A stretch of 63,843 nt of DNA, filler included, from Fonticula-like sp. SCN 57-25 (Eukaryota): NCBI GenBank assembly GCA_001724245.1. It is 5 parts of 5 records of this genome, joined end to end, with 100 filler letters (N's around TTAATTAATTAA, not from the genome) between each part and the next. Parts side by side here need not be neighbours in the genome. Positions count along the whole stretch, not along the records: positions 38,846 to 51,472 come from MEDX01000186.1; 4 more parts are not named here. The stretch is one strand, 5' to 3'. The notes beneath the pieces are model-generated. The model saw only the letters and a program-made list of their open reading frames with translations, had not been told where the DNA came from and did no database searches. This document shows, one piece after another, positions 12,811 through 59,596 of this stretch (position 1 is the stretch's first letter; each line of letters opens with the position of its first letter). A program made the translations under genes and the position numbers.

Positions 12811-12910
12811 NNNNNNNNNNNNNNNNNNNNNNNNNNNNNNNNNNNNNNNNNNNNTTAATTAATTAANNNNNNNNNNNNNNNNNNNNNNNNNNNNNNNNNN
12901 NNNNNNNNNN
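12811..12910. other. Artificial contig linker (N-TTAATTAATTAA-N)
   Basis: The same 100-nt spacer, with stops in all six frames, occurs four times. Confidence 0.97.
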
Positions 12911-26018: not shown

Positions 26019-26118
26019 NNNNNNNNNNNNNNNNNNNNNNNNNNNNNNNNNNNNNNNNNNNNTTAATTAATTAANNNNNNNNNNNNNNNNNNNNNNNNNN
26101 NNNNNNNNNNNNNNNNNN
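26019..26118. other. Artificial contig linker
   Basis: N-TTAATTAATTAA-N spacer. Confidence 0.97.
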
Positions 26119-28838: not shown

Positions 28839-31800
28839 TTAAGCGTGGTTGCTTCTCGTCGAACTGGACCTACCCTCTCCAGACGACGATGCTCCAGAAT
28901 CCGCTAAGAACGGCTGCACCGGAGAAGAGAAGTATACAGGAGGTTGAGTCTGCGACGCCCACGGACTCACAGCGGGGGCAGCCAGGCCGTTATCTGTTGC
29001 CCACGGTGACGCAACGGGACCTGCGAGCAGCGCCGACGAGCTGGAGCATTCGTCAGTTCCCTTTCGCGATGCCGTCCTCTTTTTCTCGTATGCCAATGGT
29101 TTTTCATTGACACGCTTTTCCCCACCAAGCCTTCCGCCGAGGCCATGTTTACCGGCCACGCTGCTGCTTGCCTGATCGTGCGCAATGGAAAAATATGCGG
29201 GAGGCAGATCCTGCTCTTCCTGCGCCGGTTCACCAGGCACATCAGATGGGCCCCAGAAAGCGTGCGGTGCCAGAGCCGCAGAGGACTGCGACGAGGCGCC
29301 CAGCAGGCCACCAGCATCGCCGCCATCGTTTTCAGATTCAGGGTCGTCGCTTCCGTCGTCCGGCGTGTGCTATTTCCACGACCAATGGTAAGAAAGAGGC
29401 CAGAAAGAGGAGGACGGGGCGCACCAATGCCATCGTGCTCTCTACGTAATCCACCTTGGAGATGTCGGCCACGCGGTTGCGGCGTCGAATATACAGCTTA
29501 AGACCCACTAGCATGAGAATAAGGAAAATTACGCCCAACACAACGCCGACGATTAAGCCTATCGGTGGTACATCTTCCCTAACGCCGCCGTCTAGCAAAC
29601 AATAATAATATGAGCGCTCAAATAGCATGACCGGTATTCACGGTTTTTTCCCAAGCATACCGCCATCACCGACATAATCGGCGGAGGATGTGCTGGCCGT
29701 CAGGCGCACACCCACTTGCTCCGTCTCGCCGTCGCGACCCGCAAGAAGAAGCAGTTCGTACGCCTTTGAAGTTTCAAGACCGGTGACCGTCGCATCGGTC
29801 GACGCTACGCTGGTGTTAACAAAAGACAAAAAACCTCGCAGTTGCGCACCACTTCCGAGCTGGCTGAACAAAGTAAAGCCATCCGACACTGCGCGGGTCG
29901 CCGCGAGCTTGCGGTACCACAGCTCGTAGTACGCACCCTCGGGTGACGCTGTCCAGCTGACGCGCAGCGAGTTGTGCGTCCCAGCCTCTAGTTGAAAGGA
30001 ACTAGCCGCTAGATATGTACAAATCAGCACAACAACGTATACATATTATCGAGAAACGCCGCACGCGGTATGTACGTCTTGGTCTGCAAAACGACGGCGC
30101 CAATGTCCGAATAGCCGTTGTCACTGATGGACACACGGAACTGATACCCGGAATTCGAAATGAGGCCGCCAACAACGACATGCCGTTCAGGAATATTTGA
30201 AGCGGCTATAGATACTGATAAGTTCACTAGGACATATCTATCCATGAAAGCGCGTACCGCCGGAATTGGCTACGACAAACGACCCCGTCAGCGTCGCCAC
30301 TTCAACAAGGAACCTTGTGCTCTCTGTCGCATTTGCCGTGTCCCATGCAAGCGAAACTGAATCTGACGTCTTGCTCGTCCAACGAAAGTTCTCCAGTTGG
30401 CCGCCGACAACGGGAGCTAGAGGGAGCGCGTTAATGAAAGCACCAACCGCGGGAGCAACGTACTAAAGATACAGGGCCGAGCATAGGTGTCCTCCCATGT
30501 GCCGTTCGAATAACAGTAGCGCATTGGGGGGCCTTCAGGTGCAAACTCGTAGCCAGTGGCGCAAATTCCCTCGACACTGGCGCCGGGTGAAGCTGGTGGA
30601 AAGAATGTCATGCCGACAGTGCTGCTTTGGCAGTCATCGTACTTGACCGTACACGGATCGCTAATGACGGTGCTCCAGTTACCGGAGGTGAGACACTGCC
30701 TGCGAGGCGTTCCCTGGTACCCGGAGATGCACAGGCCAACAGTCTCGGCTCCAACTGTCGTGGCAAACCAATCAGCGTTTCCTTTCCGTTCGGCAGAGCA
30801 AAGCCGCGAAGCACACGGATTCGAGATTGCGCCCCAATTTCCGTCGTTTTGACATTGCCGCGATGGCGAACCAAAGTAACCTGTCTCGCATTCGCCATAA
30901 ACGGGCGCCGACAGCGACAGCGTGTTGGGCCACTCTACGTGGCCGTCCATCACGGCCGGACAGACGTTCTGCAAGCACGGGTTCACAATGGGACCCCACA
31001 CCCCAGAGGACGAGCACGCGCGCGCCGGGCTCCCGGAATAGCCGGTCGGGCATGAGCCGCTCGCAGCGCTGTCGGCCGACGTAGCAGGCCAAATGACGTG
31101 TCCATATGACTGGGCAGGACACGACAGCGGGATGCAATTATCGCTGAGGATCGAAGTCCACGTGCCATTAAGGGCGCAATCGCGAACGGGCAACCCGATG
31201 GTGCCCAAGGGGCAGATGCCTCCTACGCTCGTCGTGCCTGCGTTGGTCGGCCCCCATGCGCCCGCTTCACTGTCGAGCGCCGGGCACATAATGCGAAGGC
31301 ACGGGTTCCTCACGGCAGAGTACAAACCACTCGCGCTGCAGTCTCGCAGCGGTGCTCCATACCAGCCCAACGTGCAAGTTCCACGCACGTCATTGGTCAT
31401 AGAGTTTTCCGGCGGCCAAAGGGCGTTTTCAAATGTTTCACTAGGGCAAACAAGACGCTTACAAGTGCCGCTGATCGAGCCCCAGATACCATTCTCAAGA
31501 CACGAGCGGCTGGGTGCTGGGCTGGACGCATAGCCAATAACGCAGTCACCATAGGCAACATTCCCGGCAAGAGTATCGATCCATTGAGCATTGCTCATTG
31601 TCTCGGCGGGGCAAATGACAAAATTACACTTGCCAACAACTGGGCCCCACACACCATCCAAAGAGCAGGAGCGAGTTACCGAGCCCACCGTGCCAGGTAC
31701 GCATGTACCAGTGGATGAAAGACCACTAGGCGTATCCACCCACATACTATCAGAACTCATACCAGACGGGCACTTCAGTTGGGTGCAGGGAGCTGAGACT

Positions 31801-34800
31801 GTCTCCCAGATGCCAGAGGAACTGCATAGGCGCGTTGGGGCACCCCCGTAACCCGCAAGGCAGGCGCCTGAAGCACTATGGCCGGCCTGCGTCTGCGGCC
31901 ACGAGCTGTGCGCGCCGTCATCGCCGATGGCAGCGCAGCGGATCGCCTGGCAGGCAGGCGACGGCGTGCCCCAATCACCCGCAAGCGTGCACACGCGCGC
32001 GGTCGTCCCGGAGAAACCGGCGAGGCAGGTTCCCGAAGCCGACGAACCGGCCTGCACAGACTCGGGCCATTCGGCGTTGAACGGGGAATAGCTGGGCGAC
32101 GTCTTTGTGCAGTAGATCGGCTTGCATGGGTTCGTGATCACCGTGTCCCACTGGCCGTTGTCCTTGCACATGCGCTGCGGCGGCGGCAGCGTCGTATCGT
32201 AGCCGGCCACGCACGTGCCGGTCACAACCTGGTTGACGGTTGAAGGGCTCTCCCAATCAGCGTGGCCGTTGTTGCGCAGGGCCGGGCACGGGTTGGTGCT
32301 GCACGGGTTCCTCGCCTCCGACCACGTCCCGTCGTAGAAGCAGTCGCGCGCAGGGAAGCCAAACGTGTTGTCGTAGCAGGTGCCGTCCACGTTCGAGTCG
32401 CCGGCGTTGGTTTCAGGGAAACGTGCTTGCGCTGAAGCGTCGTTGATGGCAGCGCACTTGATGCGCGTGCAAGGCGACACGATTGAGCCCCACGTCCCCG
32501 AGATGCTGCACTCACGCATCGGCGAGCCGGTCCAGCCGAGGTTACAAACTCCATAAGCGGTCGTGCCGGAAATGGTATCCGACCACTGGGCGCTGCCCTG
32601 ATTGTGGGCACTGCACACGATGGGCCGGCAGGGGTTAATGATTTCACCAAAGATGCCGTCGGGGCCGCAGGTGCGGCTTGGGCTTCCTTGGTAGCCAGTG
32701 AAACATGTCGCAGAAACGGACGTGAGCGAATCCGTAGAAGGCCAGCTGGCAAAGCCCTCGGTCGTTGAGCTACAGCTGTAGCGAGTACACGCGCCAGAAA
32801 CAGCTAGCCACTCGCCGCTCACGCTGCAGTCGCGAGTAGGCGTACCGCTGTAGCCGGCTATGCATTCGCCCGAAACGGTGGAGGTGGGAGCAGCCGAGTG
32901 AGGCCAGATAGCGTCGTTTCGCTGCGCCCACGGGCAGTACAGCCGGACGCAGGGGTTTGCGATAGACGGCGACCACGTGCCATCGGCGCTGCAGGCGCGA
33001 GAAGGGACACCCGAGTAACCAGTAACGCATGTGCCGGTTGCGGTTGTCATTGACAGAGTGTTGCCAGGCCAATTCGCGTTCTCAAAAGTGGTCGCCCAGC
33101 AGGTGTTGCGAACGCACGCGGGCGATACAGACGAAGCCCAAACGCCAGTGATTGAGCACATGCGCACAGGCGCCCCGCTGTACCCAGTCACGCAGGTGCC
33201 ATTGCTGCTCGATCCCGCGTTCGTTGCTGGCCACGCAGCATTTTTAAATGACGATTCGGCGGAGCAGGAAATCGGATGGCAGGTGCCAATGACGGTGGTG
33301 TTCCAGCTTCCGTTTGCCTCGCATGGCCGCTGCGGCGAGCCTTGAAAGCCTGCAACGCACAAACCCACGCCATTTGTCATCGTGATCGTTTTAGGCCACT
33401 GTACGTTGTTTACGGCATCCGCAAACGGCTGGCACTCAATACCTACGGCAAAAGTGAGTAATCTACCATTACCAATCAGTGGGTGGCGAACGGGTACAAG
33501 GCCTTGTGACATTGCCCCATGCACCAGACGCAGAGCAGGTGCTCGCTGGGGTGCCGGAGCTCGTCGCGTACCCAGGGAGACAGGCGCCGGTCCGCGTTAC
33601 GGTGCTGTAGGTTTTGATAAATTCGGCGTTACCCATCGTCACAGCAGGACAGACGAGGCGACTACAAGACTCGATGGCGGTATCGGCCCAAGTACCATAG
33701 GGGGAGCAAAATCTGGTTGCAGTGCCATTGTAACCGGTGATACAAGAACCAACTGCAACTTGGCCGGCGTTTGTGATTGGGTATCCGGCATTCCCAACGC
33801 TACCCGTGATGTCCTCACTGCACGTCAATGCTAACAGGCAGGTCAGTAGACGCAGGGGGCCTAGCAATATACGAACGAATGCAAGGGTCGCGCACGGCTC
33901 CCCATACGGTATTGCTACAGAGCGCTTTCGGATATCCAATGTAGCCTGGGAGGCAGGTGCCCGTTGAAGTGACGCCTGTCAATGTTAAGGTGAAATTGGC
34001 ATTCCCAATGATCGTCGTGTCACACGAACTATCTGAAAAACGGGAAATGTTAGATTAAGAATTATAAAAAGAAAATTGGCGTACAAGTACACTGTGTTCC
34101 TGATCCGGCATAGTGCGTGTTGCAGGTACATTCGCCATTGTAGGAGCAGCCTGCATTCTGGTCACACGTCAAATAGTCGAGGGCAATGTAGGCTCTGAAA
34201 GGAGCAGACCCCTTGTGCGTTTCCCAGCCTATTTGTGTACCATGATCGTACTGCTGGCGGAGCGTCACCTAAGGGCGCCGGGTAAATGGATGGTCGAAAA
34301 TATCGTACAAGATAGGATGCGTACAGTGCTGGCTGAATTGCGCACTACAGTATTGAGGAGGGTGGCGGGGAGGTCAACATAATACCACCACCTAAAGAGG
34401 CGATTAGCAGATATCTCAAAGTGGCGCTAAAACCGCACTCTGATGCCTTTGTGTAGCCCGATTGCGATACGCGGGCGATGTAGGATGAAAGAGCAGGTTG
34501 GTTATTCCAGGTCAAAGCGCCGTAGTTGCTAAACAGCGCGTTAACATTGCTGGTACATTACTATTCTCGTACACGTTGGTAAGCGCATCTGTTGTAACTG
34601 TGGTAGCCATGCTGGGGGTCGCGCTTGTGCTTGACTGGCTCAGGAACAGCTTTGGCGCTCCGGTGGCGCAGAAACGGCTCGAGATGGGCTTTCGAAAGAA
34701 GAGGTGTGAGTCAGTGATAACCAAAGAATACGACTGCGGCATACTGCCAGAGTAGAAAAGTCAAAGACGCCGTATGACACCCAGCGCGGCATCGACCCAG

Positions 34801-38745: not shown

Positions 38746-38845
38746 NNNNNNNNNNNNNNNNNNNNNNNNNNNNNNNNNNNNNNNNNNNNTTAATTAATTA
38801 ANNNNNNNNNNNNNNNNNNNNNNNNNNNNNNNNNNNNNNNNNNNN
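38746..38845. other. Artificial contig linker
   Basis: N-TTAATTAATTAA-N spacer. Confidence 0.97.
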
Positions 38846-38866
38846 GAATGAAACACAGCAGCAAAT

Positions 38867-40192
38867 TTATTGAGAGTCGTGATACATTGGTGGTGTCGGG
38901 ATCCCATTGTCCGATGGCAGCCACAGTGCCTAGATATACGTCAGCAAACCAAATCTGAACACGGGCGATGCGTACCGTTTCCGCCGCGACGGACGCAAAC
39001 AGGCTCAGCCTCGGGTTGAACCTGACCGCCGTGCACGCGTCCTTGTGCCCCGAGTGTGTAACCACGTGGGCGCCCGTCGTGGCATCCCATACGTGCACAT
39101 TGCCGTCCTCTGACCCGCCGACGACAAACTTGCTGTCGGGCGTGAACGATGCCTCGATCGAGCCGCCGCTGTTGACAAAGCCCGTGAGCCTGTGCATGAC
39201 GGTGCCGTGGTACGCTGCGGCGCGCATGGCGTTAGTCATTAAACCTTGAAAAAAGCGGCAAAAATGGTCCAACAAATGGCGCACCATCGAGGATGTAGTG
39301 CACGTCTATGCTCGTGCAGACGAGCATCAGCAGCCCATCGTTTGAAAACTTGATGTGCGTAAAGCGCGTCCCCGGCCTGTGCAGCGGCTCGAGGTCCCTA
39401 AAGAGCGCGAACGGCCCCTTGTCGTACTCGCGCTGATCGTACATGCGCAGCGTCTTGCCGTCCACGCCGACCGCAAACACGACGCCGGTGGGATCGTACG
39501 ACACGCACGGCGAGCGCTGCCCAGACATGCGGCCCTGGCAGGTGGAAGAGCGAATGTCCCACAACCGGACAGAGTCGTCCGACGCGCCGGATAGAAAAAT
39601 GTCCTTGACGGGATTCACCTCGAGCGATGTCACGCTGAGACGGCATCAGCCTCAGCAGACAAGGAAATGGAATGCGATGCGTACCGCGCAGTGTGGCCCT
39701 TGAAATAGCGTACGTAAGAGTTGTCGTGCAGGGAAAGGAAGCGGATTCCGTCTGTAAAGTGGTCAGTGATCGCGGTCAGTGGTCGCAAACAAGCGCACCA
39801 TCGACCTTGGTGGAAGTGTGCAGGACGTGGTTGCCGTGATGAACAAAGCGCGCGAGATCCGCGCCGTATTTCTTGCTCGGACACGTCTGACGGTGCCTAA
39901 AGAGTGGTATGTTTAGCGACATTCAATATGTACATATAAACGCAAGGAAAACGTACCGTCCTGTCTCGCAGTCGTACAGGTTTAGAATGTCATCCTCGCC
40001 GGCCGTGATGCACAGCCGACCCGTATGGTCAAAATCAATTGATGTTACTGTCGAGCGATGCTCGCGAAAAACCTTATCAACAAATAATTAGCATCGCATA
40101 TTGCGCCTCTGGCAGGCCGCGCGCACCTTGGCGACCTTGAACGACTTCATAACATCGCTCGTGAGCGCCACCGGCACCGCCTCGGCCTCCAT
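38867..40192 (-). CDS. WDR82: WDR82/Swd2 (COMPASS subunit)
   Basis: VMKSFKVAK, SKKYG, IRFLSLHDNSYVRYFKGH, DSVRLWDIR, YDKGPF, IKFSNDG, EASFTPDSKFVVGGSEDG. Confidence 0.93.
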
Positions 40193-40278
40193 CGCGGCAG
40201 CGTCAATCACCAACACGCCTGTCACAAGCCTGTGGACCAATAGGATTGTTTGGCGGCAACCGCAGCGGCGCAACGGGC

Positions 40279-41544
40279 ATGTCGGTGATTAGCACGTCGA
40301 AAGAGTTCCTGGCCTTTCGCCGGAACGTCTCTTTGCAGCGCGTACGCCATATTCGTTTGTCTATTGTTGCTTATATTATGTGGAATTAAGCGCACGGTGG
40401 ACAATGGCGAAGGAAATCGCGTGTGGCGCTTTTACGACTATGGACCCAAGACGATCAAGTGCCCCATTGTAATGTTCCCGCAGGTGGGCGGCACCGCCGA
40501 GACGTTCTTCCGCCAGATCATGGGCCTTGGCGCCCTTGGCTACCGCGTCATTGCTGTACGTCGGTGTTTACTCGCCGCTTGCCCTACTGATGCTAGCGTA
40601 GGTCGACTATGCGCCGTATGCCACGTACAAGGGATTCGTTGACGGCTTCACCAAGCTGCTCGACACGCTCGGCCTCGACAAGGTACAAAACTCTTTTCTA
40701 TATCATTTTTAATTATATTATTATTAATTTTTGTTCATTTCCGCCTTTCAGGTTCACATTTTCGGCACCGCTTTCGGCGGATTCCTCGCACAGATGTACG
40801 CCAAGAATCGCCCCCGCCGCGTCGAGTCCTTGATCCTCTGCAACAGCTACTGCGACTCTACCTCATTCAGCGTCAACGTCCCTCTCTTTGGAATGTACGC
40901 CATATATATTTGTCTATTTAACTGCCTTTCTTTGCGCATCTGACGGTACACAATCGCCAGGTTTAATATGGCGCCCGAGTTCATGCTCAAGCGGATCCTC
41001 CTGAGCAACTTTCCCCAGGGCGATCTCCCGCCGCACATCGCCGACTCTGTCGACTTTGTCGTCGAGCAGCTCGAGACTATGGACCACGCGTCGCTGTCGT
41101 CGCGGCTGACGCTGAACGCACAGGGCGCGGCGATCACGGCGCCCGCGATCGAGGGGCCCAACCGCGTCACCATCATCGAGGTACGGCATCTCGACCTTTT
41201 GTGTTATATATGGCGTAATATGGCGCTCACGTGACTGTGTAGACGAATGACGAGTGCGCCATTTCGCCGGCGCTGCGGGACTCGCTGCGGGAGACGTACA
41301 AGGAGGCGCGCGTGGTGGAGCTCAAGACGGGCGGAAACTTTCCGCACTTGGCGGTGAGCGATGAAATCAACATGTATATCAAGGTACGTACATTAATTTG
41401 ATTATATTTTGTTATGTTTTATATTTGATATTGTGTTTTGGTGGCTGACATTGGATGTAGCTGCACTGCAGGCCGTTTTTGGATACGCCGTCGTCGCCGC
41501 AATATGTAGAGTCGGCGACTGGGGAGGCGACCGCGTCGGCATAG
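40279..41544 (+). CDS. SPG21: Maspardin (alpha/beta-hydrolase fold)
   Basis: WRFYDYGPKTIKCP, VGGTAETFFRQ, VHIFGTAFGGFLAQ, SLILCNS, LSSRLTLN, LKTGGNFPHL..SDEINMYI. Confidence 0.92.
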
Positions 41545-42079
41545 AAGAGTGTGGAGGTATAGAAAAGTGTCTGTTTTTTTATTAATTTTGATTTGTTGTT
41601 GTCAATTATTCATTATAAAATTGAAGTTCTGTTTCTCATGGGAATACCCGGTATACGTACATGGACGATGCTCGAGTGATGTTAAGTGTAGATGAGGCGA
41701 TCTGTACGTCAGCATACATTAGCGCATGCCGAATGCACACATTATGTTCCTGGCCACGTTCAAGACTTTGCTGTTAGCAGGGGCATTGTATTCCACATGT
41801 TGGCATGCCCATCAGACCCCAACCGAATCAGCAAGGCAGATAGATGAGATCGAATGAGCTTGGATGCGCCACAAAGTGTATCAAAAGAAAGAGAAAACGT
41901 CAACAAGCGTAAATGTTTCCGTTTTACTTCAAAAACTGAATGCCCCCGCACGTATCGGCGCCACTGCCACTGCGTTCCCGCCGCCGTGTCTGCCACTGTC
42001 ATCGCCAATCCTGGACCAATCAAAAGCGCCCGTGACTTTGCACGGCGGGTTGGCAATTCAATTGCGGCAGACAACAACA

Positions 42080-43821
42080 ATGTCGAGCGCTGTGCCGGTG
42101 AGTGCTCTGCCGCCTGCGGTGCGGCCTCGCGGACGCCCGCCAGCGATGCCTGCGGCGAACAATGTTCAGCCGCCGTATGCTCATCGTACGCGATCGCGCG
42201 ATTGTTTGTGTGCGATCTCTAATGTCGGCATGCAGTGGTGCAGGTGCCGATGGCGCCGGTGGTTCAGCAACCAAAGTTCACGATCGCGCGGAGGCCGCGC
42301 CCGCAGCAGCCGCAGCAGGCCCGTGCGCCGGCCGCTGCACCGCCTGCCTCGATGTCGGCTGCTGAAATGGACGCGTACTTGTCGAGCATCGTTGAAAAGT
42401 CGCTCCCGACATCGCCGATCGCCGATGAGCAGCGGGAGGCGACCGTGGCGCGCATCCGCGCCGCCGCCGCTCATATATGGCCAGAGTCGGAGGTGCACGT
42501 CTATGGCTCAATGTCGAACGGTCTGCAGCTCCGGCAGGCGGACGTTGACGTGTGCCTGCTCACGCACCCGAGTCGCATCGCGATGCCGCGGGATCGCGAG
42601 CTGGCCGCCGATGCCGTCAAGCGCCTCGCCGAACAAATGAGAAATGGTGCGCATATTTGTCTTATTTAAGGTTTTAAGCTAAACTGCGAATGTAGACGGC
42701 GGGCCGCCGCTCAACCTGGAGGCGGTCACGCAGACGCGCGTACCCGTCCTCAAGTTTACCGACCCCTCATCGTGCGCAGTACCTCGATCTGCACCTGCCT
42801 ACTGACACTGCTGTGCAGCGGCGTCTCGTATGACGTGACAATTGACAACATGCTCGGCGTCTACAATTCAAAGCTTTTGCATGCGTACTGCGCGCTGGAC
42901 CCGCGCGTTCGGCCGCTGATCGTCCTCGTGAAGCGGTGGGCAAAGCTGCGCAATCTAAACAATACACGCACTTTTACGCTTTCAAGGTGCGTATTTTCTA
43001 TTTAAACGATTAAATGTCTAATATTATTACTTGTGTAGCTACGCGTGGGTGCTCATGGTTATCTTTTTCCTTCAGCGGCGCGGGTTCCTCCCGAACCTTC
43101 AGCAGATGCACGCCGAGGGTAAAGAGTGCACGCCGCGCATGACCCACGGCTTTAATACATACTTTTTCGAGGGCGACGTAAAGAGCTTGTACGCGCAACT
43201 CCTCTTTTTATATTGCTTTTTATCGCTTTTTTCGTTGCTAAGTGACTTTTTTTGACGTATTTTATCTGCACAGACCGCCAGAGCTCATTGTGAACAATGG
43301 GCACATTGTCGAACTGGGCGCCAACCCGGCCAGTCTTTCGGCGCTTTTCGCCGGTTTTATGGAATACTACGCCGACAACTTTGACTATGAACACTATAGC
43401 GTGTGCCCTCGCTTGGGCGTGCCGCTCTCGCGCCTTGCCAACGGGTGGGACGAGCAGGTGCGCCTCGCTATTTTTCCCGCCAATTTTTGCTGATCAAAAT
43501 TCTAGTCGGCAAAGCGGCACGGCGCCGAGACGCGCCGGTTGATAGCAGAGCGCAAGGAGGCGCGGGAATACGGCGCTTTTGAGGGCGCTGAAGAGCTGCC
43601 GTTCATCGATGGCGGCCGTTTCTTCTTCTGCATCGAGGATCCGTTTGACGTGACGCACAATGTGGGACGTCCGATCTCGACGAGAACGTACGTTTAGAAG
43701 ACCTCTTTTTCGGTCGCTTTTTGTGCTAAATTGGTGTTGTAGGTTGAGCCGCATCATGAATGAACTGGGCGCTGCCTCGCGCAAAATGAAGATGGGGCTT
43801 CCCGACACGATCTTTCGCTGA
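42080..43821 (+). CDS. Cid1/TUT-type terminal uridylyltransferase
   Basis: VYGSMSNG..ADVDVC, TRVPVLKF, YDVTIDN..GVYNSKLL, VKRWAK, IEDPFDVTHNVGR. Confidence 0.88.
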
Positions 43822-43848
43822 ACCCACACTATCCCTTTTGAAACAATA

Positions 43849-43885
43849 AATCAGAGAAAATCAGAACAAATCAGAACAAATCAGA
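43849..43885. repeat. Short tandem repeat (AAATCAGAAC)x3-4 in TUTase-LSM7 spacer
   Basis: aaatcagagaaaatcagaacaaatcagaacaaatcagac. Confidence 0.75.
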
Positions 43886-43902
43886 CGTGGTGTGCAGTTG
43901 AG

Positions 43903-44502
43903 ATGGTGCGCGCCGAAAGCATGAGCACGATGAGAGGAAAGGGTTGGCTGACACGGCGCTCGCTTTGTAGGGGGACAGGTCGAACCAGGGGCCCCGCAAA
44001 GGGCAGGGCGAGCAGCAGGAGGGCCAGCGTGAGCGCAAGGCGCCCATCATGGACTTTACCCAGTTCCTCGACAAGCGCGTCCGCATCAAGTTTACCGGCG
44101 GCCGCGAAGGTTCGTCTGCCCTTTCTCTGCCCTTTTTTGCGCTTTTAAAGTGTTCCGTTTTTACCGCGTGGCCCTAAAGTCTACTTTTGCCTATACTAAC
44201 GCCTTGGTTTTCCCTTTCCAGTGTCTGGCACGTTGAAAGGCGCCGATCAGCTCATGAACTTTGTCATTGACGATGCGGTGGAATATCTTCGCGGTACGCT
44301 CGCGCATCCCCTCTTTTCTGTTATGAAGCGCATTGACTGACGCCGCGGCGCCTCCTCTACAGACCCCAAGGACAGCAGCGTCGTCACGGACCAGACGCGG
44401 AATCTCGGCCTCGTCATCACCCGCGGAACTGCGCTCGCGCTCATCTGCCCCGAGGTCGGCATGGAGGAGCTCGCGCACAACCCTTACGAGCAGCAGAGCT
44501 AA
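43903..44502 (+). CDS. LSM7: U6 snRNA-associated Sm-like protein LSm7
   Basis: ATG|intron|...IMDFTQFLDKRVRIKFTGGRE|VSGTLKGADQLMNFVIDDAVEYLR|..TRNLGLVITRG..LICP..GMEELAHNPY. Confidence 0.92.
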
Positions 44503-44962
44503 GTGTATAATTTGCATTTTGAAATTGAATGGAAGCCGACTTGTATTTGCAGCGAGCAGGGGGTGGTTTGCACGCGGGGGGGGGATGGAAGATCGGGCTC
44601 ATGCGTGTAAGGGGAGCGCAGCTCACTTTGAAGGGAATGGCGCAGTATATTTGATTTGCTTTTTTGAATATGTTGTTAGGTGGATAGAACAGAAAACAGC
44701 TGTAAAAGCTAGCTATTCACACACACACCGTTGGCAAACTGTCGGCCAAATCCCTTGTGCTCTCTACTGGCAAAGAGACCAAAGGTCCATTCTCTTCTAT
44801 ACAGCACCACATACTTATTTTTGTATTATATATCATTATCTGTGCTTAAATGCAATGTGCAGTGCTTGTGCAGCGGCGTAGAACGCATTTTATTGTTCTG
44901 TTGTGGGGCCAATCCGGGGCTAGTCTGGGGTGAACATTGGTGAACATCAAAACCTTCAAAAC

Positions 44963-45029
44963 TCGCATGCGATTTAGATGGGATTTCAAGAAACCCGCAT
45001 GCGATTCCACCAAAATCGCATGTGATTTT
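44963..45029. promoter_or_regulatory. Three copies of palindromic (AAAA)TCGCATGCGA(TTTT) motif upstream of ACADVL
   Basis: Copies at 44963, 44995 and 45012. A perfect 18-bp version lies at 51732-51749. Confidence 0.5.
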
Positions 45030-45100
45030 CACCAACAACGTGAAACTTGAAGCCCGCTTTTGACTCGTGTTCCGAACACTTTTTTGCCTCGACTGAAGTC

Positions 45101-48100
45101 ATGCTGCGTTCGGCTGCTTCGCGTGTGCTCCGCCAGGGCGCCACTGCGCGCCATGTCACTGCTTCCCGCATGTTCACCGTCACGGCCCCCCGTGCGATGG
45201 CTGCCGCCTCCTCCGAGTGCGCACCCATTCCCTCATGGTCGATTTCCCTTGATGACTAACCCTCTTGCTCGCGTGTCTTTTTCCTTCCTCAGGATGGCCA
45301 GCAGCAACTCGTTCATGCGCGGCCTGTACGCCGGCCAGATGAACCCCGAGCAGATCTTCCCCTACCCCGATGTCCTCTCGAAGGACTCGAAGGAGGAGCT
45401 CTCTGCCATGGTCGACCCGATCCAGCAGTTCCTCACTGACGTGAACAACCCCGCCAAGAACGACGAGACCTCCTCTGTCCCCCAGGAAGTCACCGACGGC
45501 CTGCGCACGCTCGGCCTCTTTGGCCTGCAGGTCCCGCAGGAGCTCGAAGGCCTCGGCCTCACCAACACCGGCTACGCCCGCCTCGTCGAGCTTGTCGGCG
45601 AGGAGGATCTCGGCCTCGGCATCTACCTCGGCGCGCATCAGTCGATCGGCTTCAAGGGCATCCTGCTCGTCGGCACCGAGGAGCAGCGCACCAAGTACCT
45701 CCCCCGCCTTGCCTCTGGCGAGGACATCGCCGCCTTTTGCCTCACCGAGCCCAGCTCTGGCTCTGATGCCAACTCGATCAAGACGCGCGCCACGCTGAGC
45801 GCCGACGGCAAGCACTTTATCCTCAACGGCAGCAAGATCTGGATCTCGAACGGCGGCATCGCCCGCATCTTCACCGTCTTTGCGCAGACCGAGGTGATCG
45901 ACCCCAAGACGGGCGAGAAGAAGGACAAGGTCACCGCCTTTGTCGTCGAGCGCGACTTTGGCGGCATCACCAGCGGCGCGCCCGAAAAAAAGATGGGCAT
46001 TCGCTGCTCCAACACGACCACGCTCTCGTTCGACAACACAAAGGTGCCCGTCGAGAACGTGCTCGGGACGGTCGGCGGCGGGTTCAAGGTGGCGATGGCG
46101 ATCTTGAACAATGGCCGCTTTGGTATGGGTGCGGCGCTGACGGGTACCATGAAGAAGGTCATGGCGCTCGCGTCCGAGCACGCCAACTCGTACGTAGTGG
46201 AAATTTGGAAATTGGGAATATGATGGAAATGGGATGAAATGGGTGGTAATTGTGTCGTTTTTTATGCTTTTGGATGCTTTTGGATGCAATTTAGTGCATT
46301 TTTGTGCATTTTTGTTGATTTTAGAGTTAATTTTTAGAGTGTGTTTTGTGACACTTTGTGTTACTTTTCGCCTCTTTTTTGCCTCTTTTTTGTCACTTTT
46401 TGCCACTTTAACTCTTCTTTTCCACCCTTATCCATTTCTTGCTGACCCTTTCCCTTTCCCTTTCTCTTCCTCCAGGCGCGTTCAGTTTGGCAGCAAGATC
46501 AAGGACTATGGCCTCATCCAGGAAAAGTTTGCCCGCATGGCCATCAAGTGCTACGCCGCCGAGTCGATGGCGTACCTCGTGAGCTCCAACATGGACCGCG
46601 GCGCCCCCGAGTTCCAGATCGAGGCCGCCATCTCCAAGGTGTTTGCGTCCGAGGCCGCGTGGTGGGTGACGGATGAGTGCATCCAGGTGATGGGTGGTCT
46701 CGGTTTCATGAAGGGTACGTTGATGAGTATTGGATTGGATGGGTGAAAGGGAAATATGGGTTAAAGTGGATTAATGTGTGTTAATGTGGGTTAATGTATA
46801 TAAGTGTGTGGTAATGTGTGTGTTAATGTGTACTTGTTTATGATGTGTTCATGTGTTTAATGTGTGTACATGAGTGTTAATGTCAACTTTTTTATGTGTT
46901 GTTTGGATGTCAAAAGTGGTCATTTGGCACCTAAAAGTACACTTGTAATGTCTTTTTGTGCACTTTTCATGTCTTATTCTATACTTTTGGTACCTTCTCC
47001 TTCTCTTTCCACCCTCCTCTTTCCACCCACTTCCTAACTCTTCTTCTTAGACCTCCCCTTTGAGCGCTTCCTCCGCGACCTGCGCATCTTCCGCATCTTT
47101 GAAGGCACCAACGACATTCTCCGCATCTTCATCGCCCTCGAAGGCATCCGCGGCGCCTCCGCCAACCTCCAGTCCCTCCAGCAGGCCCTGAAAGCCCCCC
47201 TCAACCACGTGGACAGCCTGCTTGACTTTGGCGTTCGCCGCACGCGCAACGTGCTCGGCATCCGCCCCGGCTCGTCCGGCGACCTCGACACCTTTGTCCA
47301 TCCTGACTTGAAGCCCGCCGCGCGCGCCATTGAAGCGTCGGCGGCCGACTTTGGCGAGGCCGTTGAGGCTGTTTTGCTGACTCACGGTAAGGGCATTATC
47401 AACAATCAGCTGGTGCTGAAGCGGATTGCCGAGAGTGCGATGAACATTTTCGCGATGGCGGCGGTGACGTCGAGGGCGACGAGGGCGCTGGAGGGGAAGA
47501 GTGAGACGGCGCAGCACGAGTTGCTGTTGGCGTCGGGTACGCGAGAGGAAGGGGAGGGAAGGGGAAGAGAGTGGGAATGGGGGTGGAAATGGGGGTTTTG
47601 GGGGGGTGTTTCTTGGTTTTAGTGTGATTTTGGTATGATTTTAGTGTGATTTTAGTGTGATATTTGTGTGGTTTAGTGTCACTTTACTATGATTTTAGTA
47701 TGGTTTAGTGTCACTTTAGTGTGATTTTAGTGTCACTTTAGTGTCACTGTAGTGTGACATTTTTATGGTTGAGTGTCACTTTAGTGTGATTTTGGTATGG
47801 TTTATGTGTCACTTTAGTGTGATTTTGGTATGGTTTAGTGTCACTTTAGTGTCACTCTAGTGTGATTTTGATGTTTACCATGATGTTTCTTCTGGTTTTT
47901 TCCTCACTTTCCTCACTCTCCCATCTTCTTAACTAACACTATTCCTTTCCAGCCTTCTGCCAGGAGGCCAGCGAGGACGTCAAGCGCCAGCTCGCCGAGG
48001 CCCGCGCCCCCCGCTCGACCATCGACAGCAAGCTCGGCCAGATCGCCGCGGGTGTCTTTGAGAAGCAGGGCTACGTGGCCACTCACCCGCTCGGCTTTTA

Positions 48101-48101
48101 A
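45101..48101 (+). CDS. ACADVL: Very-long-chain acyl-CoA dehydrogenase (VLCAD/ACAD9 family), mitochondrial
   Basis: [74 protein letters not shown]-terminal HPLGF. Confidence 0.93.
47615..47875. repeat. Intronic minisatellite (TTTAGTGTCAC / TTTAGTGTGAT units)
   Basis: Many 11-12-nt degenerate units in the last ACADVL intron. Confidence 0.85.
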
Positions 48102-48377
48102 GCTAGTGATCAATTGAATAAAAATGAACCATGAAAATGCCTTTTTAATAAGGAAAGTGGGCATATAGAGTACATACAGTACATCATGCCATATGGAATA
48201 TGTCATGAAAAACAGTATAGATTCATGATATGAATCAAGTCATATTCACAATTTGTTACACTTTTCAATGATATTGTCATGACAATAAGTGTGATGAAAT
48301 GCCATGAAAATTCACCTTTTATGCACCATTTTGCTTGTTTTATTCATACAAAAATTCTATACACTTTTCACTCTTCT

Positions 48378-50199
48378 TCACACATCCGCATCATCATCCT
48401 CATGCGGAAAATTCTCTGCAAACTCTCTCAACTCTTTCGCCGTCCCCACCGACCTATTGCCAATACATTAGCATTAGCCACACTATAAACCCCTTTTTCT
48501 GTCTCGTACTGAGCCGGTATCTGCGGAAATGTCTGCCTGGCCAACCCACTCAGCACCCCCCCCGGCCCCATCTCTACAAACCTCCCCGCCTTATGCAGCT
48601 GCACCATCCTACTCCCCACCATCACCCACCCCACCGTCCCCGCCGTCTGCCTCGCCACACCCTCCCTAACCCCCCTCGTCCCGCCCATCACTTCGCCAGT
48701 GAGCCCAGAAAGCACCGCCAGCGACGGCGGCCGAACATGTATCTTTGCCATCACTGCTTCCAGCTCGGCCACGACGGGGGCCATGAGGGCGCTGTGAAAG
48801 GGCGCGCTGACGCGGAGGGGAATTGCGCGGGAAATGAGGCGGAGGGAGCGCGCTGATTGGATGGTGGCGGTGACGGCGGGAGTGGTGCCGGAGAGGGTGA
48901 GCTGGGTGGGGGTGTTGATGTTGGCGAGGGAGCAGGTGTGGGGGGGGCCGAGAGAGGTGGAGATGCGATGGCTGAGTTGGCCTGAATGGGGGTTAGGAAG
49001 GGGGGGGGTAAGAGAAGGGGAAGAGAAAGTGGATGTATATGGATGTATATGGGAAAAATACATGAGTATATGAGATACATACATGGAGATACATACAAGA
49101 GTACACATGAGTACATGGGAAATAGATATGAGAATGTACATGAGAAAGATAAAGATAGGTGGATATGAACAGAAAGTGTGGATAAAATTACATATACACA
49201 CATAATCAATAGACATGTACATGCACAATATAGTATAACTATACCCATGTACGACCATGACATAAAATGACCCTCATCACCTATATCTTTATGCCATATC
49301 CCTATTCCTATTTCATTCCCATTCCTGCCCATATTCCTCTACGTACGAAGCTCCTCGACCGACTCTACCCAATTGGACCCCGCCGGCAGAAACACCGCGG
49401 CCATTGATGTCGGCACTCCGACCGCATCCGCCGCACGCTGCATCGCCAGGCCCCGTTTGCGCTAAGTGACATTAGGATCACTATTCACTTGGATCCAATG
49501 ACTGCGCACGACAAGATAAACAGCGTCCGAGAATCGCAGCGATTGCGCGCAGACGAGCGCGGAAAACTCGCCGAGCGAGTGGCCGGCCGACACGCACGTG
49601 TACTTGGAGAGGTCGACGCCGAGATCGAGCTTAAGGGAGCGGTAGAGGGCGACAGAGTGGAGGAGGATGGCGGGCTGGCAGTTTTCGGTTTTGGTCAGTT
49701 CTTCCTGGAGATGGGGTCAGTACAGGGGAAAGCGAAGGAATATAAACAAATATAGAGTCAATAGTCACGTTAATAACGACAAGTGTACAGTATTGTATTC
49801 ACACGCACATACATTGAATATACATACTATACTGATCACACGTTCAATAGATTCCCAGTGATGACCACGGCCATGGACAAGTTACCTCGCACTTTCATGT
49901 CAAACATCAACATAAAAGCAAACATAAGGTGCTCTAACACACTAACATGCGCCACACTCACTTCCAATGCCTCACATGCCGCGTACCATGGGACCCTCCT
50001 CCATCATCTTTGAGAGGTTGATGCCGAGGATCTCGTCGACCTCCTTTGCCATGTTGCGCGCCGTAGGAAACTCGCGGAACAGGTCCTTTGCCATGCCAAC
50101 ATACTGAGAGCCCTGGCCTGGGAACACGAGCGCGATCGAGTCATTCGCGATGCCCTTGGACGCCGACGCGACCGCCGCCGCCGCCAAGCGACTCGTCAT
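48378..50199 (-). CDS. MCAT: Malonyl-CoA:ACP transacylase (FabD), mitochondrial
   Basis: VFPGQGSQYVGM, LTKTENCQPAIL, GHSLGEFSAL, ANINTPTQLTLSG, LRVSAPFHSALM, VEMGPGGVL. Confidence 0.92.
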
Positions 50200-50435
50200 C
50201 GTCACGTGACTTTTGAGTTACGATGACACACCGTTTGTCACGTGATGGTCGCCACGCGGCCTTTTTCCGCCATTTTTCCCTCTTTTTTTTCATTCTCTTT
50301 CTTTCCCTTTCCCGACCCTCGTGCGCCGGAAAAGGACGAAAGAAAAGAAGGATGGCGATCGCAAGCTAACTGGTACGTCCCTGTGGCCTGGCTGGGTGAA
50401 AGAAGGGGAGTGTGTGTGCTGCTGTTGGTGGGCGT

Positions 50436-50527
50436 GGGTCGCTGAAGGGATGACAACTTCGAAAATCCAACTCTAAAGCAAATCCATGTTGATACCCCGA
50501 TGAGCTTTTTTTTGTCTGATCGAACCC
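50436..50527 (+). ncRNA. Box C/D snoRNA, SNORD19-like (18S Gm683 human numbering)
   Basis: C-like GGGATGA, D CTGA at 50516, terminal stem GGGTCG/CGAACCC. Guide AAATCCAACT before D'-like CTAA is antisense to 18S AGUUGGAUUU. Extra GAGCTTTTT is antisense to the adjacent AAAAAGCUC. Confidence 0.62.
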
Positions 50528-50704
50528 ACTATCACTATCATTTCCTCTTTATTATCTAGTTATGTCTGGCCATCTTTACTAACTCGCTTGTAGTCTCCTA
50601 TTATACAAGTCAATGAACAAGACAATGATCCTTGCTTGATCTTGCCGCCAAGAATGTCTCCTTGATGGTGCGTAAAATGTGTGCCATGCGTGCTGCTTGA
50701 TGTG

Positions 50705-50790
50705 GAAAAGTGTCTATGAAGATAACCCTTTTTGTGACTGCCGATGCCCATGAGGCCGTCCATGTTTCAGCCTTGTCGGAGACTCTTTTC
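50705..50790 (+). ncRNA. Box C/D snoRNA, snR41-like (18S Gm1126 yeast numbering)
   Basis: Stem GAAAAGTGTC/GACTCTTTTC, C-like ATGAAGA, guide GTTTCAGCCTTG antisense to 18S CAAGGCUGAAAC, D-like CGGA. The fifth nucleotide upstream of D pairs with the first G of CAAGG. Confidence 0.8.
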
Positions 50791-50949
50791 TCTATCTTTT
50801 CTTTCTATCCTGCTTGATCTCGTTCGACATTGACTAACCATCCATGATGATAGATATTGAACAAGCACCTCTATACACACATATATATGAGACTATTTCT
50901 TCAATATGGTGCGTATTATTACTATATTGTGTGCTTTTGTACTTGCTTT

Positions 50950-51040
50950 GTAAGGATATGAAACCGAGACGGGCGGACTGAAAGGGGTGTTTCATTACTG
51001 GAACGCCTATTGGTGTTGAATGTCTCTTTTTATGAACTTT
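50950..51040 (+). ncRNA. Box C/D snoRNA, snR70/U43-like (18S Cm1639/Cm1703); ends approximate
   Basis: Guide GACGGGCGG (50968-50976) + A + CTGA is antisense to decoding-site CCGCCCGUC. The D+5 rule selects the C equivalent to E. coli C1402. Confidence 0.75.
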
Positions 51041-51149
51041 TTTATCGTATTTTGTTATGGCTTTGGCCCTTTTCGTATATGGAAACTAACCCGCTGTGCT
51101 CTTAGGTACGTCAATATGACTGAATATGACGATATATGGCTTTATATTT

Positions 51150-51226
51150 GAGAATGATTACAAACACTTGTCGCAATTTTTCCTATTTAATGTGAGGATT
51201 GTCAAGTTCGGTTCATCGATGAACTC
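51150..51226 (+). ncRNA. Box C/D snoRNA guiding LSU GAU[G]AACCGAAC
   Basis: C-like ATGATTA, C'-like GTGAGGA, D-like ATGA, short GAG/CTC stem. 12-nt guide GTTCGGTTCATC is antisense to LSU GAUGAACCGAAC. Confidence 0.68.
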
Positions 51227-51409
51227 TACATACTTGCTATATATTTTACATACTTGCTATATATTTTTGTTATATATTTGTGTGTTGTTGTGGTACTTAT
51301 TATCTCTTGATAGGACTCTTGAGCTGCTGATCATATACAAGACTCTACTTTGGCCCTTATTGGTACGTACTTTACTATTGAATTGAATATGAAGATATGG
51401 TCGAGATAT

Positions 51410-51472
51410 GCGCGTGATGTTTGTATGCAATGCTATGCCTGAAGACAGTCAAATAACCCTGATGTCACCTTT
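51410..51472 (+). ncRNA. Box C/D snoRNA (truncated by gap) guiding LSU CAU[A]GCAUUGC
   Basis: C-like GTGATGT, guide GCAATGCTATG + C + CTGA (D'), C'-like CTGATGT. Confidence 0.65.
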
Positions 51473-51572
51473 NNNNNNNNNNNNNNNNNNNNNNNNNNNN
51501 NNNNNNNNNNNNNNNNTTAATTAATTAANNNNNNNNNNNNNNNNNNNNNNNNNNNNNNNNNNNNNNNNNNNN
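51473..51572. other. Artificial contig linker
   Basis: N-TTAATTAATTAA-N spacer. Confidence 0.97.
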
Positions 51573-51832
51573 CATTTTCGGAAAGAGCTCGCGAAACCGC
51601 GTCGAGCGTCAGCAAAAAGTGCAAACTGACCAGCAAGTTTGCATCCGTCTTTTAACTTGAGGCCTCCCCATATTTGTATCCATACGCATTGCTTCATGGG
51701 ATGACAAAAATTGACAAAAATCGCGATGACAAAAATCGCATGCGATTTTCGTTTTTGGCGGGATTTGTCAATTGGATTTGTCGTGCGAAATATTCCGTTG
51801 TGTAGTTCGAGGACCCTGCCAGTTGGATCGAG

Positions 51833-52801
51833 ATGGCGCGTAGCGGTAGCTCAGCGGCCAAGCCGGCTGCTGCCAAGGGCAAGGCTGCTGTAACAAAGGC
51901 AAAGGGCAAGGCCCCATCTGCTGCGGCGAAGGGGAAGGGCAACGCTGCGCCTGCTGCCTCAAAGAGGAAGAAGGGAAGCGCGTCCGCCAGTGCTTCGCCT
52001 TTGAAAACCGACGCTGCCGCCAGCCCGAGCAAGGAGGGCAGGCGCGACTACTCTGCGTTTGTGCTTAACAAGCACCGCTACAATGTTGGCGACGGCGTGC
52101 TCGTACAGTCCTCGGGGTCGGGCGCCGACTATATCGGCGCCATCGTCAAGATTCAGGCGTCTCCCTCGGACCACAAGAATGTTCTCCTTACGGTGAACTG
52201 GTTCTACCGCCCCGAGGTGCGCATCCCGGCTCTCTTCGCTCTTGCTTATTGTTTTTGTATAGGACATTAATGGAGGCCGCCGGCCCTACCACGGCCGTGC
52301 CGAGCTGCTTCAATCGGAGCATCGCGATACGGTGCACGTCGGCACCGTCAACGGCCCCTGCAAGATCTTCAAATTCGAAGAGTACCAGGCGACGGAAGAC
52401 AAGATTTTGGAGGAGGCGGAGGACGAGGACAATGTTTTCTATTACCGCGAGCAGTACGACTACAAAAAGGGCGTCATTAAGGTACGACGGTCGTTTTTTT
52501 CCTCGCTTTCCTCCCTGAGGAAAATTGCCGTGTAATATGTGGTGCTGATGCGCCGCTGCTTTTTTTCGAAGACCAAGCTGCATTTGTACTGCATTTGCCG
52601 CAAGCCGCAGAACCCTGACGACCTCATGATTCAGTGCGACGCCTGCGAGGACTGGTTCCACTGTACGACCTTGCTCTTTTGAGGGCTACATTTCCTAACA
52701 TTCGTTTTACAGCTGAATGCATCGAGCTCAGCTCCAATGACGAGAAGAGCCAGTCGTGGGTGTGCCCAAACTGCATGAAGAAGGGCATCAAGCTAGCATA
52801 G
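51833..52801 (+). CDS. BAH-PHD chromatin reader (EBS/SHL/EPR-1-like)
   Basis: [84 protein letters not shown]. Lys/Ala-rich N-terminal tail. Confidence 0.9.
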
Positions 52802-58670: not shown

Positions 58671-59596
58671 CTATTTCGTGTACTTCCACCTGAGCGAGAG
58701 CCCAGCCACAGACGACACCGACCCCGCCACGGCCACCGCGATCGGCGGCACCGGGCTGCTCTTGAGCGACCAGTGCACCGCCATGAGCAGGTCGCACGCG
58801 TTCGTCACGTACTTTAGCGCGACGTCGCTGATCTGCCCGCTGATCGCCTCCCTCTCGCGCGCCCGCTGCTCGTCCGTCATGCTGAGCGGCTGCGAATACT
58901 TGCTGCGCTCGATCGCCGCCTTCCGCCGCAGAATATCGCGCATCTTGAGAGAGTCCATGATCATGTCGGCCACAATGTACGCCAGCCAGGCAATGCAAGA
59001 GTACCGCGAGCTCTCATCCCGCGCGTGATCCGACATTTTGATCACCTTGTGAAGGGCAAGCCAGTAAACATTGTCCAGGGGGTAGTAGACCACCATGCTC
59101 CATGCCTGCACAAAGCCAAGAATATTCACAAGGCGGCCCTCGGGCGTCGTCGCGGGGGTGAGCGTGCGGTGATAGTCGAGCACGCCATCGGCGGTCGCCA
59201 GCATGCCGGTAAGGCGGAGCACCATACGCGCATCGAGCAGGGGGGCGACGAGGCGGCCGAGGCGGACAGAAAGCTCATTGTCGCCGAAACGGCGCTTCAA
59301 GTACCAGTCAAGCACGCGCACAGTGTACACGACCGTGCGAAAGATCTAGGGATCCCGGGTGAGAAGGGCGACACAGGGTCGGTGACAGGGCGATGCCGTA
59401 CCTTGTCGGATCCGCCGACGCTCGACGCAAACTTGACGAGGCGCGAGAGAACGGGGGCATCGGGCACTTCGGATGAAACCATCGTGCGCTCAGTCCGGCG
59501 GCGCGTCTTTGTGCTGCGCGCGCCCGAAGAAGCAGAGGAGGATGTCCGCGGGGTCGACGGCGTCAAGGGGGGATCAGCCGATGCGGCCGTGCTCAT
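58671..59596 (-). CDS. PEX11: Peroxisomal membrane protein PEX11 family
   Basis: LVKFASSVGGSDK, ARMVLRL.G, YYPLDNVYWL, NACDLLMAVHW, GSVSSVAGL...W. One intron. Confidence 0.85.

Follow-up and report, generated by a model that had tools for sequence, protein, structure and literature searches.

The window, i.e. the whole stretch of 63,843 nucleotides analysed from the assembly of Fonticula-like sp. SCN 57-25, consists of contigs of about 12.7 kb joined by linkers of the form N44-TTAATTAATTAA-N44 at positions 12811-12910, 26019-26118, 38746-38845 and 51473-51572; because of these joins, the gene neighbourhood of the locus described here is meaningful only within 38846-51472. A non-coding, multi-intron snoRNA host gene is located on the plus strand of this contig, from about 50300 to the contig end at 51472. 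Since the contig ends there and the N linker starts at 51473, the 3' part of the gene is missing. The host stretch is AT-rich, with a GC content of 0.44 (50001-52000) versus about 0.55-0.62 elsewhere. The gene stands head-to-head with a malonyl-CoA:ACP transacylase-like gene on the minus strand (ATG at 50199), the two sharing the region 50200-50372. Short pyrimidine-rich repeats are found in this shared upstream region at 50260-50311, and we take them to resemble the 5'TOP starts of animal snoRNA host genes.

The units of the host gene repeat one form: donor, small RNA, branch point, AG. All features given below for this gene lie on the plus strand. The presumed exon 1 (50300-50372) begins in the pyrimidine-rich region and its 5' end is a guess. 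Intron 1 (50373-50593, 221 nt) has the donor GTACGT, the branch point TACTAAC at 50577-50583 and a terminal TAG, and contains a box C/D candidate recognized by its box motifs (C box GGGATGA at 50447-50453, D box CTGA at 50516-50519). Exon 2 (50594-50667, 74 nt, non-coding) is bounded by splice signals at both ends. Intron 2 (50668-50853, 186 nt) has the donor GTGCGT, the branch point GACTAAC at 50832-50838 and TAG. Exon 3 (50854-50908, 55 nt, non-coding) ends in AATATG. Intron 3 (50909-51105, 197 nt) starts with GTGCGT, has the branch point AACTAAC at 51084-51090 and finishes with a TAG ending at 51105. Intron 4 (51106-51313, 208 nt, GC 0.30) starts with GTACGT and finishes with a TAG ending at 51313, preceded by a weaker branch point, TACTTAT, at 51294-51300. 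The next exon (51314-51362, 49 nt) is non-coding and is followed by intron 5, which starts with GTACGT at 51363 and is truncated by the contig end at 51472; it contains a C/D candidate with the C box ATGAAGA at 51389-51395 and CTGA at 51439-51442 and 51459-51462. The exons between introns 1-5 are thus 74, 55, 0 and 49 nt long, without coding potential. C/D-like boxes occur in all five host introns and guides checked against rRNA in two of them (introns 2 and 3), intron 4 being doubtful. The distance from donor to C box in introns 2, 3 and 4 is 48, 49 and 48 nt (in intron 4 with ATGATTA) and that from the D-like box to the acceptor in introns 1-4 is 74, 73, 70 and 91 nt, the last being 71 nt when a 20-nt duplication is subtracted; as the D boxes of introns 3 and 4 and the C box of intron 4 were picked after the pattern had been seen, this match in layout is suggestive only.

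At the border between introns 3 and 4, the AG at 51104-51105 lies directly against GTACGT at 51106-51111, as found by sequence reading and by motif scan. The acceptor parts are complete at 51105: the branch point ACTAAC (51085-51090, within AACTAAC at 51084-51090) is followed by a pyrimidine-rich stretch and by the first AG, in CTCTTAG ending at 51105, and the consensus donor adjoins with no base between. The initial annotation had placed the ACTAAC, the CTTAG acceptor and the GTACGT donor at these same coordinates, with no exon between, and its positions are exact. The 405 bases between the end of exon 3 (50908) and the start of the next exon (51314) are accounted for by the two juxtaposed introns of 197 and 208 nt, each with its own donor, branch point and acceptor. 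Exon 3 ends in ATG and the predicted product of a first ligation is ATG|GTACGT; the other host exons end in CTG, ATG and TTG before GTRCGT.

The signals at the junction agree with those of the genome's own protein-gene introns. Eight such introns of the window were used for comparison: three of the malonyl-CoA:ACP transacylase-like gene, three of the VLCAD gene and two of a BAH-domain gene. The transacylase-like introns were delimited by visual inspection, using the peptide to judge whether the exons are continuous, and the VLCAD exon limits were taken from tblastn. The donor is GTRCGY in seven of the eight and GTACGA in the remaining one, and GTAAGT does not occur on the plus strand of the window. 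The branch points are TACTGAC, TCCTAAT, TCCTAAC, TGCTGAC, TCCTAAC, AACTAAC, TGCTTAT and TGCTGAT, so that a CTRAY-type or CTTAT branch point stands 10-30 nt ahead of YAG in all eight. The AACTAAC inside the 405 bases fits the consensus better than the terminal TACTTAT, which departs from CTRAC. The latter is judged usable because CTTAT is the sole branch-point candidate in the 46-nt intron 52219-52264.

The composite site is rare. On both strands of the 63.8-kb window there are 24 AGGTRCGY sites, and a CTRAY motif 5-30 nt upstream is found at one of them, that at 51104. Dinucleotide-preserving shuffles of the interior (50915-51290, 376 bases) contained at least one composite site in 17 of 20000 cases, and shuffles of the whole host gene (50373-51472) in 50 of 20000; AGGTRCGY alone was present in 128 of 20000 shuffled versions of this interior. 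All GTRCGY hexamers in the host gene (5/5) are at places where a donor is expected. No composite acceptor-donor site was found in the three VLCAD-gene introns of 285-415 nt. The screen that flagged the junction spanned very many windows, and the rarity in shuffles does not by itself rule out chance; further weight against it comes from the fact that the site stands precisely at the border of two small-RNA units in a gene that consists of such units.

For the identification of the small RNAs, two SSU, two LSU and two 5.8S rRNA references were taken from eukaryotic rDNA in bacterial MAG contigs, which comes from eukaryotes other than this organism. This rDNA was located in genome contigs by a standard 18S primer (23 loci), and SSU, LSU and 5.8S were placed by Rfam. 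The core of the same primer was also present at eight loci in viral contigs, and an Rfam scan of five of these yielded no rRNAs. Intron 2 contains a snR41-type snoRNA, with the C box ATGAAGA at 50716-50722, the guide GTTTCAGCCTTG at 50764-50775 and a D-like CGGA at 50777-50780. The 12-nt guide is perfectly complementary to CAAGGCTGAAAC of the SSU rRNA in both SSU references and in 9 of the 23 rDNA loci, and is followed by T and then, in place of the expected D box CUGA, by the non-canonical CGGA. Its predicted target is G 1119 of the 1794-nt SSU reference, close to yeast Gm1126.

Intron 3 contains a snR70/U43-type snoRNA at about 50952-51039, identified by guide complementarity and fold. Its boxes are a C-like ATGAAAC (50958-50964), a D' box CTGA (50978-50981) and a D-like ATGA (51032-51035). 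The guide GACGGGCGG (50968-50976), followed by A and CTGA, is complementary to CCGCCCGTC in both eukaryotic SSU rRNAs and in E. coli 16S rRNA (1399-1407). The base five nucleotides upstream of the D' box pairs with the equivalent of C1402, and the D' guide is predicted to direct methylation of this decoding-site C, at position 1636 of the 1794-nt SSU reference. The label 'snR70-like' given at the outset is borne out by this guide and its D' box against the C1402 equivalent. In yeast, 18S Gm1126 is assigned to snR41 and Cm1639 to snR70 in the table of PMC5699541, and positions 1119 and 1636 are probably equivalent to these two. snR70 is reported to work through its D' guide (PMC5824354), and snR70, human U43 and plant U43 are described as one ancient clan acting on yeast Cm1638 and human Cm1705 (PMC3511168). 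The fold of 50950-51042 has a free energy of -28.8 kcal/mol (z -3.70; none of 200 shuffles equally stable). The hairpin of this RNA is long and pairs part of its own guide, which makes it unusually structured for a box C/D snoRNA.

No match of the intron 3 RNA to the SNORD43 or snR70 covariance models (Rfam clan CL00059) was found at E values up to 10, and Rfam at gathering thresholds gave no matches in the whole window. Complementarity of the host gene to rRNA in 9- to 11-mers is not above antisense or shuffled controls, and the 27 window-wide 11-mer matches to rRNA are about the calculated chance rate; both guide assignments therefore rest on the adjoining box motifs. Antisense matches elsewhere in the window, at 59028-59041 (14 nt) and 1289-1299, fall within GC-rich sequence of coding-like character and were attributed to chance.

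The box C/D-like element of intron 4, at about 51119-51241, is recognized by box-like motifs and is doubtful. The candidates are ATGACGA (51126-51132) and ATGATTA (51154-51160) for the C box, each with one mismatch to RUGAUGA, and GTGA (51192-51195) and ATGA (51219-51222) in D position, where no canonical CTGA is present; the terminal stems are of 3 bp. ATGA is reported to be accepted as a D box in the fungal clusters of Luo et al. 2013 (PMC3596301). The GC content of the intron is 0.30 versus 0.40-0.47 in introns 1-3, and its fold is no better than those of shuffles (z between +0.47 and -1.02). A search of intron 4 for 12-mer guides shared by both rRNA references, with at most one mismatch and one G-U pair allowed, gave none, and 51120-51250 yielded no guide of at least 10 nt ending beside a D or D' box when compared with the two SSU, two LSU and two 5.8S references, which are foreign to the organism; given this, the target of the element may be lineage-specific. 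The sole Rfam match of intron 4 in a permissive search is to Afu_264, at 21.3 bits versus a gathering threshold of 40 (E 0.06, for 405 nt). Afu-264 is assigned to 26S Gm2770 and Gm2773 (PMC2377427), which correspond to snR48 sites in the yeast table of PMC5699541. Identification of this match as a snR51 unit was rejected, as the Afu-264 targets are snR48 sites and the aligned guide regions differ; no fitting snR51-type guide (18S Am100 / 25S Um2729) was found in introns 4 and 5. Several other candidates were also discarded. An 11-nt LSU match at 51066-51076 was an artefact of merged separate 9-mers and was gone in the 12-mer guide search. RNAduplex matches for intron 4 were G-U-rich and held for one reference only, and the pairing of TTTAATG (about 51185) with the A100 region of 18S rRNA is of 7 bp only and in the wrong register for Am100.

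A perfect tandem duplication of 20 nt (two copies of TACATACTTGCTATATATTT) is located in intron 4 at 51227-51267 and is either recent or an assembly artefact. A 15-nt block around the C-like box, TGAATATGA(C/A)GATAT, is common to introns 4 (51121-51135) and 5 (51384-51398), and of the 10 intron pairs only this one scored above all 200 shuffles; the units of introns 4 and 5 may thus be duplicates or paralogous. Whether intron 4 yields a working snoRNA stands at about even odds. The junction had initially been described as separating the snR70-like snoRNA from the next one: the upstream partner is indeed of snR70 type, and the downstream partner is doubtful, having no canonical D box, no guide detected against the references used and a sub-threshold Rfam match.

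The reading favoured here, held with moderate confidence, is that the junction probably represents a genuine zero-length exon of a polycistronic, non-coding snoRNA host, with two introns standing end to end and removed in two steps. It builds on the observed motifs, their fit to the genome's own signals, their rarity in shuffles and the identity of the upstream guide, and it predicts from these that both sites are used, in which order the reactions take place and that two RNAs are released. AACTAAC, a strong branch point, would be transcribed first, and the first AG after it is that ending at 51105, to which exon 3 would be spliced so as to be ligated to 51106. This ligation would rebuild a consensus donor, ATG|GTACGT. 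In the second reaction, the branch point TACTTAT and the AG at 51313 would serve to remove the remaining 51106-51313. Since AACTAAC is stronger and earlier, the AG at 51105 comes first and the donor is regenerated, two successive reactions are what the signals lead one to expect; the alternative order, with the downstream intron removed first, would be possible in principle. Two lariats of about 200 nt each would result. The first would give the snR70/U43-type box C/D snoRNA after debranching and exonucleolytic trimming, and the second would carry the C/D-like element. The initial annotation had proposed recursive splicing with a lariat of its own for each snoRNA; the anatomy is consistent with this, as both halves match the other introns in size and layout, and the downstream snoRNA is the part that stays doubtful. 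Most likely, a deletion removed the exon, or else the downstream intron unit arose by insertion or duplication. Since the spliced host RNA is non-coding, both kinds of event would be tolerated.

Other readings are weaker. Under each of them, a perfect consensus site would have to go unused or be fortuitous. It is unlikely that the acceptor at 51105 is used and the GTACGT at 51106 ignored, so that 51106-51362 forms a 257-nt non-coding exon with a decayed or exonic C/D-like element. Such an exon would suit the degenerate look of the element in 51106-51313, the weaker branch point TACTTAT and the non-coding nature of the host, in which there is no pressure for removing 51106-51313. However, a perfect donor straight after an acceptor is rare by chance (the 128 of 20000 shuffles with AGGTRCGY), the donor at 51106 would after ligation stand in a normal exon|GTACGT context, and the five GTRCGY hexamers of the host are all where donors are expected. 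Somewhat less likely still is one intron of 405 nt (50909-51313) removed in a single step, with the internal signals as relics and the snoRNA or snoRNAs cut from the lariat by exo- or endonucleases. The genome does have ordinary introns of 285-415 nt, yet the internal AACTAAC is better than TACTTAT and is transcribed earlier, and the snR70-type RNA would then be about 278 nt from its acceptor, as against 70-74 nt in the neighbouring units; the fungal cases reported as tested splice stepwise (PMC3596301).

That the two sites adjoin by chance or through an assembly error, such as an exon collapsed in a fragmented draft, is considered highly improbable. The junction is exactly between two C/D-like units with matching layout distances and is the sole such site in the window, which speaks against an accident, even though the assembly is fragmented (contigs of about 12.7 kb), the junction has a 20-nt duplication with 100% identical copies at a distance of 120 nt, and a rate near 1/1000 per gene leaves room for chance when very many windows are scanned.

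Recursive splicing in snoRNA introns of about 200 nt had been expected to be unusual at first annotation; this expectation does not hold, as precedents exist in fungal snoRNA clusters and in S. pombe. Luo et al. 2013 (PLoS One 8:e58547, PMC3596301) reported at least 61 exon losses in fungal snoRNA clusters, giving 'complex introns' in clusters I-III, and the stepwise or recursive splicing of such exon-less introns is reported there as confirmed by EST and RT-PCR. As in those clusters, where each intron carries one C/D snoRNA, the host described here is non-coding and polycistronic, its units have a complete set of donor, branch point and acceptor each, and the exons inside the gene are very short or missing; its five introns all have C/D-like boxes, with guides checked in two of them and a doubtful element in intron 4. 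Fungal cluster III is given as snR41-snR70-snR51 (PMC3596301), and by guide complementarity the order of the snR41-type and snR70-type units is the same here. In cluster III of Debaryomyces hansenii, a zero-size exon is found between snR41 and snR70 (cited in Donovan et al. 2016, PMC5033589), so that the missing exon precedes snR70, whereas here it follows the snR70-type unit. The locus further differs from cluster III in that its third unit is not recognizably snR51 and in that at least one further snoRNA unit stands ahead of the snR41-type unit; it differs from the fungal clusters in general in that the host looks like a holozoan protist and the case is predicted from sequence.

With RNA-seq data, Donovan et al. 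2016 (PMC5033589) described nested and recursive splicing for Candida clusters. Between the snoRNA introns of the snR57-snR55-snR61 cluster in Candida parapsilosis and its relatives there are likewise exons of 0 or 1 nt, and splice sites are regenerated; there the sites are reported to overlap with a common G and to allow alternative orders, while here two complete, non-overlapping sites are present (PMC5033589). In S. pombe, Chen et al. (bioRxiv 10.1101/226894) reported a zero-length exon in a 336-nt intron of SPNCRNA.445, the snoRNA61 host, and described it as conserved within the genus. That intron is also a short snoRNA-host intron split by an acceptor abutting a donor, and it was established by spliceosome profiling (mapping of 5'-P and 3'-OH ends) and RT-PCR, whereas the present one is predicted from sequence. 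Recursive splicing of a 375-nt intron was reported by Burke et al. (bioRxiv 10.1101/224170) for BOT1 of Cryptococcus neoformans. This is again a microbial eukaryote, and its short intron is divided into parts of 210 and 165 nt by an exon of zero nucleotides; BOT1 is protein-coding and has no snoRNA there, in contrast to the non-coding snoRNA gene described here. No description of snoRNA host genes of such an exon-less kind outside fungi was found in the literature searched.

The junction also resembles the ratchet points of Drosophila and vertebrates, in which acceptor and donor are likewise juxtaposed and the donor is regenerated by the first ligation. These recursive splice sites are reportedly known for long introns from work by Duff in 2015 and Sibley in 2015. 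Introns with ratchet points are tens to hundreds of kilobases long, a length that stepwise removal may help to handle. The halves of the present pair are, by contrast, of about 200 nt, each with its own small RNA or small-RNA-like element.

Among the 120 proteins listed as relatives of the VLCAD gene, which shares the contig of the host gene, the best named ones are from Capsaspora (70% identity), the EukProt entry 'Opistho-2' (69%), Nk52 (67%) and animals. An ORF of 1031 aa on a neighbouring contig of the window (minus strand, 30417-33512) encodes HYR and Sushi domains. Its closest relatives (62-70% identity, in ENA assemblies) include tyrosine-kinase fusions of about 1550 aa, which are like the receptor kinases of unicellular relatives of animals. 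These two genes point to a unicellular holozoan rather than a fungus. In a search of metagenomes for a related locus with the last exon of the neighbouring transacylase gene, 14 loci of 28-35% identity were retrieved, none of them close.

With this locus, a pair of short introns joins the likely examples of recursive, exon-less splicing. The locus also supports the view that a non-coding snoRNA host gene has its introns as product, its exons being expendable spacers whose length may fall to zero. An exon-less snoRNA host in an apparent unicellular relative of animals may be new, the phenomenon itself being known in fungi. If the organism is such a relative, the fungal phenomenon would be extended to the other side of the opisthokont tree, with a hint that the snR41-snR70 linkage is very old. 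A holozoan identity would also mean that the snR41-snR70 host gene and the tendency to internal exon loss predate the split between fungi and animals, or else that there were two origins. It is a tentative and rather doubtful possibility that a snR41-type-snR70-type host with loss of an exon to zero is older than that split or arose twice, the downstream unit having come by duplication or insertion. Had this unit come by whole-intron duplication or insertion, it would be a non-fungal example of the 'excise and insert' mode of intron mobility proposed by Luo et al. (PMC3596301). As to annotation, gene finders would call one 405-nt intron here and miss the second splicing event.

Some further features of the material were observed. 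The VLCAD introns 46190-46475, 46716-47050 and 47537-47951 (about 285-415 nt) are full of short AT-rich tandem motifs (TTTAGTGTGA-like units), and the exons of this gene are GC-rich. The occurrence of eukaryotic rDNA in contigs filed under bacterial MAGs (L023, L025, L027, L032, L036, L037, L039, L042, L043) is bin contamination. L025 carries a full SSU and L027 both SSU and LSU in full, while the full LSU of L039 is accompanied by an SSU match that is full-span but shortened (954 nt). One 'Hyphomicrobiales' MAG holds 7 of the 23 primer-positive contigs.
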